Below are positions 11,697 to 15,272 of a DNA stretch of 64,000 bases, piece by piece (position 1 is the stretch's first letter; each line of letters starts with the position of its first letter). Below the pieces are notes generated by a model. That model was not told the DNA's origin, searched no databases, and saw only the letters and a program-made list of their open reading frames with translations. The position numbers and the translations under genes were made by a program. This DNA comes from Escherichia coli (GTDB taxonomy: Bacteria > Pseudomonadota > Gammaproteobacteria > Enterobacterales > Enterobacteriaceae), in NCBI RefSeq assembly GCF_024223415.1, contig NZ_CP100501.1. One strand, given 5' to 3'.

Positions 11697-11847
11697 GGGG
11701 ATTCCTCCATAGATGAATGGATAAATTTCGGGATTAAGTCGGGTGGCATGAATGCGAATCAGCGCCGGTAATAACCGGACAGGAATGAATTCAACAGGAC
11801 ATTTTTACAGAGAAGAGCGAACGGCAGAAGGTGGTGGGAGACAGGTA

Positions 11848-11879
11848 CAAAAAAACCGACTGGTGAGGCCGGTTTTTTT
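11848..11879. terminator. possible bidirectional terminator-like hairpin between the nuclease gene and trbA
   Basis: AAAAAACCG ... CGGTTTTTTT inverted repeat with A/T runs on both sides; weak call. Confidence 0.25.
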
Positions 11880-12478
11880 GCGATTCCGGGGTGGAGTTGG
11901 TGGCTCTGACCGGAGGAAGTCTCTTTTCAGCTAACAATGAGAGAGCTGTTGTGACAGGCAATGTAAGAGTAAGCAGCAGTGATTTCCTCCATTGACGGAG
12001 AAACGGATGATTAACCTGTTAATCATCGTTCTCAGGGCGGTTGTTGCTGTGGCTAACGCAGTGATAGCTCTCCGGGAACTGGTTGACTGATAATCCCGGA
12101 AACGTACTTAAGGGCAGAGGGTCACCTCCTTCTGCCCTTTAACAAAATATGCTCAGGTTAAAAATCGAAAACCTTCCTGCACTTCCTGTGCCTGTTCCCG
12201 TGAGCCAAACATGAGCCGGCTTTTACCCGGAACTCCCCAGGAAATATATTCTACATCCACCCACCATTTTCCGTATTCTTCATACGGTCCGGATATCACT
12301 TTAGTGACAAATGCATCAATCAGGTTCATTTTTACACCTTTCTGTTATTCTGCTTATTACGACCAGCAGACAGCAAATATTAAAAATAACGCGGCGGTAA
12401 AAATGGCAATTTTTTTCATGCTGTATTTTTGCCATTTATTTTCTTTGAAATGGTTTTTTTCTTCATATCAGCAAATAA

Positions 12479-13048: not shown

Positions 13049-13729
13049 ATGAATTCCAGTACGCTGATATCCGTGATGATACGGCAACAGATATCCGGTG
13101 ACGGTATGCAGGAACATATTGATTATCAGATTGAGAAATATCAGTTCAGGGCCAGGAATGAGTCACCGCGACTGATGCGCCAGTGGGAAGATGTCATGCG
13201 TGAATGCCGTGATACCGGAGCAGGAGCCAGGGAGCGGCTGCGGATTGCCTTACTTAATGTTGATTATGTGACCAGTTTTGAACTGCCGTTTCGTCTGCTG
13301 TTAACCCGGACACCGCAGATGATTGACAGCGTGCGGCGGGAATGGCAGCTCAGCCAGAAAAAAGTCGTATTCAATGAGCGGCAGCGGGGATGTGTATACA
13401 GTCTGCAGAATGACTTATCCGGCGTGCCGGATAGCTTCAGTTACAGTCTTGCGACGCGAATACGGCGGGTGGACAGCTATGGCATGACGACGCGTTGTTT
13501 CACTGATATAGCCGGGCAGGTTAAAGCCCCGACAGCACGGCTGAAACTGGCGCTGGAAAGCGGGTTAATTGTCACCGCGCTGGATGGTCTGTTCTGGCTT
13601 GGTATTCAGCGTATTGCCGCAGATGTGCAGCGGCTGCGTCAGTCCGGAATGACAATCATCACCCGGGATGTTGAGGTCTCAGACTCGCTGACCGGAACCA
13701 CACGGGTTGTTTCCGGGTACAGACTTTGA
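13049..13729 (+). CDS. hypothetical protein (226 aa), only sizeable plus-strand ORF in this part of the backbone
   Basis: Long ORF with non-repetitive composition; no family recognised; start codon uncertain. Confidence 0.4.
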   Translation: MNSSTLISVMIRQQISGDGMQEHIDYQIEKYQFRARNESPRLMRQWEDVMRECRDTGAGARERLRIALLNVDYVTSFELPFRLLLTRTPQMIDSVRREWQLSQKKVVFNERQRGCVYSLQNDLSGVPDSFSYSLATRIRRVDSYGMTTRCFTDIAGQVKAPTARLKLALESGLIVTALDGLFWLGIQRIAADVQRLRQSGMTIITRDVEVSDSLTGTTRVVSGYRL

Positions 13730-13930
13730 TTTATGCAACAAAGTATCGCAGCGTCGAATATGAGCTATGGCCAGATTTTTGTTAATCGTGGTTGTTGCAA
13801 CATGTAAGGCGAATGACCACACTATTCTGGTACGCTCGTAATCACGCTGAAATTCTGCTTCCTGTCCTGCCGTGATGAGTTCCGACCAGGACATACGGCG
13901 AAGTGTATGTCTGTCAGTAATATCCGTCAT
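13679..13930 (-). CDS. hypothetical protein (83 aa), member of a translationally coupled small-ORF array
   Basis: Start overlaps the stop of the upstream ORF (ATGA at 13927..13930). Confidence 0.4.
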   Translation of the reverse strand: MTDITDRHTLRRMSWSELITAGQEAEFQRDYERTRIVWSFALHVATTTINKNLAIAHIRRCDTLLHKSKSVPGNNPCGSGQRV

Positions 13931-14142
13931 GAGCTCTCAGCCTCCTCCTTCGTATTTCCGTCAGAAACACAAACGCCCCGCAGAGAAAATTCGCCAACAT
14001 TCTCCTTTTTAATGGCGCGCAATGCATCGCGGCAGGCCCGTTCGGTATGAAAGGCCTGGCTGTGCACCGCCAGTGTGGGCTGACGGGCATCACCGGAAGA
14101 GACATTAAAGGGCGATGAAAGCCAGAAAATCAGTAGCCACAT
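13927..14142 (-). CDS. hypothetical small protein (71 aa) with signal-peptide-like N-terminus
   Basis: N-terminus MWLLIFWLSSPFNVSSG; closely spaced with neighbours. Confidence 0.4.
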   Translation of the reverse strand: MWLLIFWLSSPFNVSSGDARQPTLAVHSQAFHTERACRDALRAIKKENVGEFSLRGVCVSDGNTKEEAESS

Positions 14143-14145
14143 GCG

Positions 14146-14529
14146 TCACACCTCGTCCTTTTTATGCGGGTATCTGGACAGAATATTGAGCGCCTGTAAT
14201 GGCGCTTCATGCATTTCACGGATACAACGGGCATCGGTGATATTTTCCCGGTAATGTGTGGTTTCCAGCATCATATGATGCATATGGAGCATCCGGGCCA
14301 GGGCTGCGCGGAGTTCTTCAATATGTTGTTCATGGGAATGCTGGCGGGGCTGTATCCGGCAGAGAGGGATAACCTCCACATCATCCGGGTGCGCGCGAAG
14401 CCACGCGTCAGTGACTGCAATGTCGTCAGTGTAAAACCATGTGCCGGATGTCCCGTTGGCCAGAAAACGCATTTTCCAGGCTTCTGGGGTGGCGGTTGTG
14501 TTGTTATCTTTCATGGTGCCACCACTCAT
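14146..14529 (-). CDS. hypothetical protein (127 aa)
   Basis: ORF with start overlapping the stop of the upstream ORF (14526..14529). Confidence 0.45.
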   Translation of the reverse strand: MSGGTMKDNNTTATPEAWKMRFLANGTSGTWFYTDDIAVTDAWLRAHPDDVEVIPLCRIQPRQHSHEQHIEELRAALARMLHMHHMMLETTHYRENITDARCIREMHEAPLQALNILSRYPHKKDEV

Positions 14530-14717
14530 TCAACAGGCTTAATGCTGTCCAGGCGCAGTCTGCTCAGACTGTCGTGGCTGCCACAGCGGCGTCCAGTGCT
14601 TTTGCTGTAGCACTCCTGCCCCCTGATACACCATGCCGTTGGCGTTTCGTAGAGGCTGACACGTCGGGTTTTATCTTTAATGATGAGAAGCCCGGTGTGA
14701 GTTTTTGTCTTTTTCAT
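14526..14717 (-). CDS. hypothetical small protein (63 aa)
   Basis: First ORF of the coupled array; lysine-rich. Confidence 0.35.
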   Translation of the reverse strand: MKKTKTHTGLLIIKDKTRRVSLYETPTAWCIRGQECYSKSTGRRCGSHDSLSRLRLDSIKPVE

Positions 14718-14971
14718 CGGTGGGGTACAAACGCAGAAATTTTGTTGTCATTACATCATCAGTTTTAGCCTGCAGAGACGCTGAAAAATCAGCGTTTTCA
14801 GACCCTGTTCAGGTTAGTGAATATTCTTGCCTGGCCTTTCGGCAATATCAATCCCCTGATGTGTGCACACGTAGTCACTTTCCGGCTTTATTTCTGTCCC
14901 TGACACAAAATACGTGGTGGCATGAAAAGGATTGTGGCGGACAGGAAAACGATTAGAATAGCGGCGGGCGC

Positions 14972-15265
14972 TTGAGGCTGTATGCCGAAAGCGTTTTGTG
15001 GACGGCATGTAGCAGAAAGCCCCAGGCGATTTTTTTATCAATCAACCCAGGGCCCACTGTAATGCCTAGACAACATTATAGTAGCCCGATGACGGCCGAA
15101 AGGCAATGGAGGGGCTGCGATGCCACAACGAACGTTTTTAATGATGTTAATCGTCGTCTGTGTGACGATACTGTGTTTTGTCTGGATGGTGAGGGATTCG
15201 CTTTGCGGATTTCGTATCGAGCAGGGAAATACGGTGCTTGTGGCAACGTTAGCCTACGAAGTTAA
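14972..15265 (+). CDS. pndC: pndC/mok-like leader reading frame overlapping the Hok-type toxin gene
   Basis: ORF in a different frame that overlaps pndA almost completely, as in hok/mok and pndA/pndC loci; start uncertain. Confidence 0.5.
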   Translation: MRLYAESVLWTACSRKPQAIFLSINPGPTVMPRQHYSSPMTAERQWRGCDATTNVFNDVNRRLCDDTVFCLDGEGFALRISYRAGKYGACGNVSLRS

Positions 15266-15272
15266 ACGTTAA
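15120..15272 (+). CDS. pndA: Hok/Gef-family type I toxin PndA (50 aa)
   Basis: Translated by hand: MPQRTFLMMLIVVCVTILCFVWMVRDSLCGFRIEQGNTVLVATLAYEVKR; not in the ORF track because it is short. Confidence 0.85.
   Translation: MPQRTFLMMLIVVCVTILCFVWMVRDSLCGFRIEQGNTVLVATLAYEVKR

Follow-up and report, generated by a model that had tools for sequence, protein, structure and literature searches.

The window analysed here, a 64,000-nucleotide stretch of Escherichia coli contig NZ_CP100501.1 (assembly GCF_024223415.1), carries a cassette of four small minus-strand genes, orf63, orf122, orf71 and orf83, at positions 13679-14717. A first description made from the sequence alone (the original prediction) presented them as a chained array of open reading frames (ORFs) of unknown function next to a 226-aa ORF. 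We found that the cassette consists of genuine genes and that it is mobile cargo shared by plasmids and chromosomal islands of E. coli; its last gene appears to encode a remote homolog of the ANR family of regulators. The features of the locus are the following:

14526..14717, minus strand: orf63, the first cassette gene in the window; 63 aa, 7.2 kDa, pI 10.
14146..14529, minus strand: orf122/127, the second gene; 127 aa as ORF, 122 aa (14.4 kDa) from the probable start at 14514.
13927..14142, minus strand: orf71, the third gene; 71 aa.
13679..13930, minus strand: orf83, the fourth and last gene; 83 aa; ANR-like protein with three predicted helices.
13049..13729, plus strand: ECs1377-family gene, the convergent neighbour; 226 aa as ORF, 207 aa in the annotation of the Prokaryotic Genome Annotation Pipeline (PGAP).
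14817..14867, minus strand: 3' remnant of orf80 (WP_001363144) and deletion junction, from comparison with locus L002 and chromosomal loci.
14823..14851, minus strand: promoter-like site TTGATA-17-AAGAAT, ~105 nt upstream of orf63; weakly indicated.

All coordinates of the four chained minus-strand ORFs of 63, 127, 71 and 83 aa in the original prediction were reproduced from the ORF list and the sequence. Stop and start codons overlap as ATGA at 14526-14529 and 13927-13930, and a 3-nt gap is present at 14143-14145. The second gene probably has its conserved start at the ATG at 14514, yielding a product of 122 aa, because this is the start chosen by PGAP, because it is the sole start in the diverged copy L009, and because GGTGG is located 4 nt upstream of it. 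With this start the first junction is therefore an 11-nt spacer and not an ATGA overlap, which is still close enough for coupling. Shine-Dalgarno (SD)-like motifs precede orf71 (GAGGTG) and orf83 (GGAGGAGG), and inspection of the window sequence revealed no SD-like motif upstream of orf63. The 226-aa ORF had been described as divergent; it is actually convergent with the array, since the 3' ends of this ORF and of orf83 have 51 bp (13679-13729) in common. The overlap falls entirely within the non-conserved tail of orf83, which is predicted to be disordered, and is therefore incidental.

Same-strand ORFs of at least 60 aa cover 99.7% of the 1039 bp of the array. This level was not reached by any of 2000 dinucleotide shuffles of the region (maximum 96.5%), and a coverage of 90% was reached by 27 of the 2000. 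The sequence alone is therefore only modestly unusual, and the decisive evidence is comparative.

This comparative evidence demonstrates that all four ORFs are genuine genes. The four-gene order recurs in at least three diverged lineages (the window type, a type that we name type B, and the chromosomal variants L021 and L017), and both frames and order are kept in diverged copies, which is the conservation check across related plasmids that the original prediction had proposed. Its view that these are real, closely spaced genes of a single operon is thus borne out by the retained synteny and by purifying selection. The type B copy at L009:5799-6906 displays ~72% nucleotide identity to the window and has the four genes in identical order. 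Comparison of the two copies yielded a dS (synonymous divergence) of ~1.5 and ratios of nonsynonymous to synonymous divergence (dN/dS) of 0.126 for orf63, 0.137 for orf122 and 0.065 for orf71. The most constrained gene of the cassette is orf71, with 84-85% aa identity where its neighbours show 52-71%. The faster-evolving gene is orf83, with a nonsynonymous to synonymous polymorphism ratio (pN/pS) of ~0.45 in its core; its frame is preserved in every lineage, as is the motif LRRMSW..L......DY..A.I.W..A......INKNLA.A.I..C. The junctions in the diverged copies are short gaps of 10, 9 and 27 nt and not overlaps, indicating that the tight packing is conserved and the exact overlaps are not.

Decayed variants of the cassette are also found in nature. 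The N-terminus of orf122 is fused to the C-terminus of the ANR-like gene in P0012 and P0034, orf122 is frameshifted in L021:524-911, and a frameshifted orf71 is found as well (L017). Furthermore, a lone 124-aa homolog of orf122 (56% identity) is present at L030:6780-7154, in an island rich in type III secretion system and PerC genes and without the other cassette genes; orf122 can therefore occur by itself.

The cassette is horizontally mobile cargo: IncI-complex plasmids carry it in their variable trbA-excA region, and E. coli chromosomes in islands rich in insertion sequences (IS). Of the 579 plasmid records that match it, 366 have window-type copies with an identity of at least 90%; the other 213, at 60-80%, are mostly diverged full-length copies. 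Matches are also present in about a fifth of the complete E. coli genomes (1136 of 5426), with 800 chromosomal places. Type B was found in 350 genomes, and virulence plasmids of Shiga toxin-producing E. coli (STEC) are among its carriers. The chromosomal island copies are 93-95% identical to the window type. Islands with the cassette adjoin sat, iha and pap in sequence type 131 (ST131) and other extraintestinal pathogenic E. coli (ExPEC), and espP adjoins other copies.

The window itself is 99.7% identical to the IncK2/Z plasmid pCh101. In agreement with the original placement of the locus in the exc-trb region of an IncI plasmid, the gene order is trbB, trbA, dqlB, a 58-aa ORF, nuc, the ECs1377-family gene, the cassette, pnd (hok/sok) and excA, so that the cassette occupies the variable trbA-excA cargo region. 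A 1747-bp block with 93-95% identity to the chromosomal islands takes in the final 260 bp of the ECs1377 gene, the five ORFs and 159 bp of upstream DNA, and stops ~17 nt short of the sok element. The islands retain the truncated 3' piece of the ECs1377 gene, which shows that the convergent arrangement of the plasmids was already present in their ancestor. In plasmid pESBL other genes, among them one for Hha/YmoA, occupy the trbA-excA interval; transposon sequencing scored this plasmid's own cargo there as not required for transfer, several of the genes being ambiguous or scored as needed for maintenance (PMC4288162).

Two assignments of the locus were considered and rejected. The cassette is not the leader of a primase/helicase replication module: the AEP/helicase pseudogene fragment found beyond the ECs1377 remnant is an unrelated rearrangement. 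Nor does the locus correspond to the Hft transfer-control region of pESBL, which is found at another place on the plasmid, between traA and repY.

Genes for SPATE autotransporters (sat, espP and another Peptidase_S6) are repeatedly located beside cassette copies (L003-L006, L017 and L037), and in the STEC plasmid pRM10466-1 espP is flanked by a nuc pseudogene and a type B cassette. These arrangements suggest that SPATE genes moved into islands together with pieces of IncI-like backbone. In five loci from IncI-type plasmids (L012-L016, positions ~6000-8700) a gene for an EptA-like sulfatase (475-514 aa) is present between the ANR-like and the ECs1377 genes, joined in four of the five by a DUF2569 gene. 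In these loci orf122 and orf71 are essentially identical to those of the window and the ANR-like allele shows only 67% aa identity; this implies a recombination breakpoint near the orf71/orf83 junction.

The ancestral cassette contained five genes, in the order orf80-orf63-orf122-orf71-orf83. The window lacks 257 bp that are present in typical IncI1 plasmids (L002:6469-6725), with the junction at 14858-14867. This deletion took the first 63 codons of orf80 and 67 bp of AT-rich DNA upstream of it, and the last codons of orf80 remain. The identical deletion allele is kept in several plasmids. The promoter-like sequence TTGATA-17-AAGAAT survives the deletion and is conserved in the ST131 copy; it has 9 of 12 matches, and such sites are no more numerous than in shuffled sequences. 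Because the upstream gene and the proximal upstream DNA are deleted, the deletion allele may need a promoter within the operon or one farther upstream for its expression.

The deletion also creates a chimeric 75-aa ORF (14814-15041) that overlaps the sok RNA region. The deletion allele occurs in chicken-source IncK2/Z plasmids, and a genome-wide association study of IncK2 plasmids reported a "hypothetical gene adjacent to hok/sok" associated with chicken (PMC12987596). The chimeric ORF is a candidate for this gene, which was not confirmed by an exact-sequence look-up.

The products of orf63, orf122 and orf71 found nothing in Pfam, NCBIfam or PADLOC, and PDB sequence searches likewise returned nothing. 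The orf63 family is characterised by the motif KTHTG..I......V.L.ETP..WC....E.Y.K..GRR.G....RL.L.SIKP and matches PHROG 1226/7520 at 1e-17. Lambdoid phages (such as Flotzy, Stx2a phages and Yersinia phages) carry homologs with 43-53% identity in their early-left operons. A zinc-binding role was considered for orf63 and is unlikely, as the phage homologs do not keep its cysteines.

The orf122 product would consist of an N-terminal beta-beta-alpha-beta unit followed by a C-terminal helical hairpin, as modelled by AlphaFold2 (AF2) with a predicted local distance difference test score (pLDDT) of 75. No match to it was found in Pfam, NCBIfam, PHROG, PDB or BFVD, and its full-length relatives are confined to E. 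coli-type sequences. An exhaustive profile search identified ~45 remote clusters that share only its C-terminal domain of ~50 aa (motif AL.RML.MH.LMM.K.N...SFYDA.C.REMNEAP.QA), with E values of 1e-8 to 1e-4. This domain recurs at the C-terminus of modular phage-type proteins with varied N-terminal domains. One such relative, at L034:5001-5669, is located in the early region of a Mu-like prophage, between a dATP/dGTP pyrophosphohydrolase gene and gemA. Pfam, PHROG and NCBIfam gave no name to the domain in these distant relatives either, and it looks like an undescribed family.

The orf71 product matches PHROG 3766 at 2.5e-11, and a homolog with 41% identity is encoded between the EaD and Eaa genes of Klebsiella phages. 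The signal-peptide-like N-terminus noticed in the original prediction belongs to this protein (MWLLIFWLSSPFNVSSG); it is kept in all lineages and in the Klebsiella phage homolog. Two conserved cysteines are present in the remainder of the protein after this hydrophobic N-terminus. On these features the orf71 product is probably exported. It may resemble DUF1482-type small proteins, a likeness that Pfam did not confirm.

The relationships of orf83 are of a different kind. Its conserved core consists of residues 1-66 (7.8 kDa), and residues 67-83 form a variable tail predicted to be disordered, through which lengths in the family vary (74, 83, 90 or 103-107 aa). The sole NCBIfam match of orf83, and of each of three relatives, is ANR_neg_reg (NF033650). 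The window protein scored 16.2 bits (E 7e-3) and the three relatives scored higher, at 24.6, 28.3 and 30.7 bits: the 90-aa island allele matched with an E value of 1.6e-5, the 103-aa type B allele with 1.1e-6 and P0073 with 2.1e-7 (30.7 bits). For profile comparison, an ANR alignment was made of Aar (coding sequence from the supplement of the paper) and eight annotated ANR genes from plasmids. Using hhalign, the orf83 family (13 members) aligned to these nine ANR proteins with 89.7% probability (E 1.9e-6) over 58 columns; alignment to Aar alone gave 8% probability (P 0.004).

The predicted structure is in agreement with this match. AF2 models three helices in orf83 (residues 15-27, 31-44 and 48-70), the number expected of an ANR protein, with a pLDDT of 93-97 over residues 11-65 and a predicted template modelling score (pTM) of 0.69. 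The mass of orf83, 9.5 kDa, is below 10 kDa, as expected of the family, and the type B relatives (103-107 aa) exceed this limit through their tails; the reported masses of ANR proteins are 4.4-9.5 kDa (PMC10148876). The ANR signature consists of residues A10, E14, A22, W26, A29, W43 and R47 (PMC4983702). In a manual gapless alignment to Aar, the consensus of the orf83 family retains A10, E14, A22, W26 and A29, together with the C-terminal cysteine C51. Judged by these data orf83 is a remote homolog of the ANR family that falls below membership in its profile score, in the tryptophan of helix 3 and in association with an AraC-type gene.

Homologs of orf83 are named "neurotensin receptor R8" or "flagellar biosynthesis protein FlgM" in databases. 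These names are evidently spurious and have been propagated.

We tentatively favour, and regard as quite possible, the reading that the cassette is a phage-derived accessory operon that ends in an ANR-like, protein-binding regulator of transcription or silencing. The four genes would be translated from one mRNA, with coupling or re-initiation, because orf71 and orf83 overlap by 4 nt, orf122 and orf71 are 3 nt apart, and orf63 and orf122 are 11 nt apart or overlap as ATGA, and because SD-like motifs are present at orf71, orf83 and probably orf122. Aar and Rnr act by binding directly to AraC/XylS activators and to H-NS-family silencers, and Rnr, although only 25% identical to Aar, is interchangeable with it (PMC4983702, PMC5570504, PMC10148876). 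By analogy, the orf83 product would most likely be a small protein-binding modulator of a transcription regulator, and a regulator of either the host or the element could be its target. In that case the operon would adjust how genes of the incoming element or of the host are transcribed or silenced, without a direct part in conjugation; the orf63 and orf122 products may be partners or independent early-type effectors.

Several observations weigh against this reading. At 16-31 bits, neither orf83 nor its three relatives reach the 32-bit cutoff of NF033650. The signature residue W43 is replaced by leucine in every member of the orf83 family and R47 by histidine or lysine, and the window protein has glycine (G22) and threonine (T34) at two of the signature alanine positions. 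Mutation of Aar W45, which is equivalent to ANR W43, abolishes activity (PMC4983702). Searches with phmmer, using two AraC-family queries, detected no AraC-like ORF in the window, and no AraC-family gene is annotated within 4-10 kb of related cassette copies. A Foldseek search of the orf83 model against PDB, which holds no solved ANR structure for comparison, returned only generic TPR, MIT and 14-3-3 helices (E >0.3). ANR genes are monocistronic and located beside virulence regulators; orf83 ends a four-gene operon. In addition, no result ties orf63, orf122 or orf71 to regulation, and expression of the deletion allele would have to rely on a weak predicted promoter and on an orf63 gene that has no SD motif.

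The original prediction had suggested anti-restriction, immunity or regulatory functions. The ANR-like last gene lends some support to the regulatory role; the anti-restriction and immunity roles did not fare as well, as PADLOC and Pfam searches came out empty and the locus lies outside the leading region. The main alternative, which we consider unlikely, is nevertheless of this type: the cassette would be a host-takeover or anti-defence unit whose small proteins inhibit host defence or housekeeping targets on entry, the ANR-like fold serving as a protein-binding scaffold. The early accessory regions of phages hold anti-defence and host-modulation genes, and many phage-early and plasmid small proteins act in this way. 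Relatives of three of the gene families are located in such regions of lambdoid and Mu-like phages, and the proteins are small and the cassette highly mobile. However, none of them matches a PADLOC family or a Pfam family of the Ard/Klc type (ArdA, ArdB/KlcA and ArdC). The trbA side of oriT is, on the established IncI1 map, the side that enters last, and the cassette is located on that side, between trbA and excA, outside the leading region. In pESBL the leading-region genes ssb, psiB and ardA are located on the other side of oriT-nikAB (PMC4288162). Moreover, the chromosomal island copies are fixed and do not enter new cells.

An envelope or exclusion function is a more doubtful alternative still. 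It would be centred on the putatively exported orf71 product, acting in surface exclusion, phage adsorption or autotransporter biogenesis, with the cytoplasmic proteins as accessories. The strong constraint on orf71, with its conserved signal-like N-terminus and two cysteines, is consistent with such a role, as is the position of the cassette beside excA in plasmids and beside SPATE genes (sat, espP and other Peptidase_S6) in islands and STEC plasmids. The N-terminus of orf71 lacks a positively charged n-region and a lipobox, however, no homology to known exclusion proteins was found, and the SPATE adjacency is explicable by a shared origin from plasmid backbone together with IS activity.

It is about equally improbable that the cassette is decaying hitch-hiker DNA, silent in the window since the 257-bp deletion removed the operon promoter. 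The deletion did take the start of orf80 and the AT-rich 67 bp upstream, leaving only a weak promoter-like site and an orf63 gene without SD motif, and other copies show decay. Nevertheless, the window has all four ORFs intact, with 99-100% identity to hundreds of copies on plasmids, selection is strongly purifying across lineages, and the deletion allele is maintained in several plasmids. A toxin-antitoxin or other addiction-type stability module, which might be suggested by small, tightly coupled plasmid genes near the type I toxin loci pnd (hok/sok) and dqlB, is highly improbable, since there are four genes and not two, Pfam, NCBIfam and PADLOC contain no matching toxin-antitoxin or defence family, and some isolates have one gene frameshifted or deleted and retain the rest (orf122 in L021, the fusions and L017), which is unexpected for addiction.

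The favoured reading, a phage-derived operon ending in an ANR-like regulator, also has a bolder form, which we regard as a long shot. The cassette would be a multi-protein system that modulates xenogeneic silencing, in which an ANR-like adaptor with leucine in place of tryptophan and three co-translated partners, one of them exported, would retarget H-NS-family or AraC-type regulators. If true, a silencing-modulator cassette would control neighbouring acquired genes (SPATE toxins, adhesins and plasmid functions) in islands of the ExPEC ST131 type and on IncI and STEC plasmids.

The cassette is very common: it is present on ST131 pathogenicity islands beside sat, iha and pap, and on several hundred IncI-complex resistance plasmids and STEC virulence plasmids. 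Each of its genes is annotated as "hypothetical" or under a spurious name ("neurotensin receptor R8" or "FlgM"). Literature searches aimed at the cassette genes yielded no publication characterising them, only incidental mentions of "ECs1377" and "neurotensin receptor R8". If orf83 acts like Aar and Rnr, resistance plasmids would be spreading a small regulator with the potential to change the expression of virulence genes or plasmid genes in their hosts; if it does not, the family would mark the limits of the ANR fold. Either outcome would be an improvement of annotation and not a surprise, and the ANR-likeness makes the function experimentally addressable.

The convergent 226-aa ORF belongs to the ECs1377 family: it matches NF052300 with 300.6 bits (cutoff 190; E 3.4e-90) over profile positions 2-190 of 190. 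Its C-terminus matches PF14090 HTH_39, a winged helix-turn-helix, with 23.8 bits (gathering score 21.3), and it matches phrog_24243 with an E value of 5e-54. A scan of viral contigs found no ECs1377-family protein. We also considered whether the ECs1377 gene functions together with the cassette as a unit and rejected this, as inserted cargo separates them and a paralogous cassette is located across nuc: type B cassettes lie on the opposite side of nuc and do not adjoin the ECs1377 gene. Hence, the 226-aa gene, which the original prediction had grouped with the array, is not functionally tied to it. The accompanying claim that none of the ORFs matches a family has to be revised, given the ECs1377/HTH_39 assignment, the PHROG matches of orf63 and orf71 and the sub-threshold ANR match of orf83; it does hold that no ORF has a characterised close homolog.

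Other small elements are located nearby. The 58-aa ORF between nuc and dqlB (12153-12329, minus strand) is a phage-type small gene that matches phrog_8110 (E 1.3e-18), and it sits where other plasmids have a type B cassette. The DinQ-like type I toxin gene dqlB (11992/12007..12090, plus strand) lies in window region 11847-12090, near a match to the AgrB-family RNA (RF02891) at 11847-11934 on the minus strand; typical IncI1 plasmids have two dqlB copies. On the other side of the cassette, the hok/sok-type pnd locus (14966-15272) is intact, with a sok RNA at 14966-15122 on the plus strand (Rfam RF01794, 125.6 bits) and the Hok/Gef toxin gene for PndA at 15120..15272 on the plus strand.

Among known systems, the ECs1377 (NF052300)/HTH_39 family is matched by the neighbouring protein over its full length and well above the cutoff, but the family itself has no assigned function and the gene is merely a neighbour of the cassette. 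The Hha/YmoA and H-NS-like stealth modulators of conjugative plasmids are likewise small plasmid-borne proteins, which affect H-NS silencing through protein contact, and the Hha/YmoA gene of pESBL occupies the same variable region of the IncI backbone (PMC4288162). They have no sequence relationship to orf83, however, and the resemblance is positional and derives from the literature on ANR and H-NS.

The accessory genes of temperate-phage early regions (the lambda-like pL/ea/nin regions and the Mu semi-essential early region; PHROGs 1226, 7520 and 3766) include homologs of orf63 and orf71 and of the C-terminal domain of orf122, which are uncharacterised accessory genes themselves. They also resemble the cassette in layout, with short ORFs packed closely in one direction and stop codons that overlap start codons. 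The homologs occur singly in the phages examined, whereas on plasmids and islands they form a fixed four-gene unit. For orf83 the closest comparison is with the ANR family: Aar of enteroaggregative E. coli, Cnr of enterotoxigenic E. coli and Rnr of enteropathogenic E. coli and Citrobacter rodentium. The orf83 family differs in having an additional conserved N-terminal motif (LRRMSW) and a variable C-terminal tail, and in being essentially restricted to E. coli and Shigella. It shares with the ANR proteins the small size and the three consecutive alpha-helices, with the pattern A..AE...Y..A...W..A in helices 1-2 and N........C at the end of helix 3, and, like ANR genes, orf83 is carried on plasmids and pathogenicity islands of enteric pathogens.

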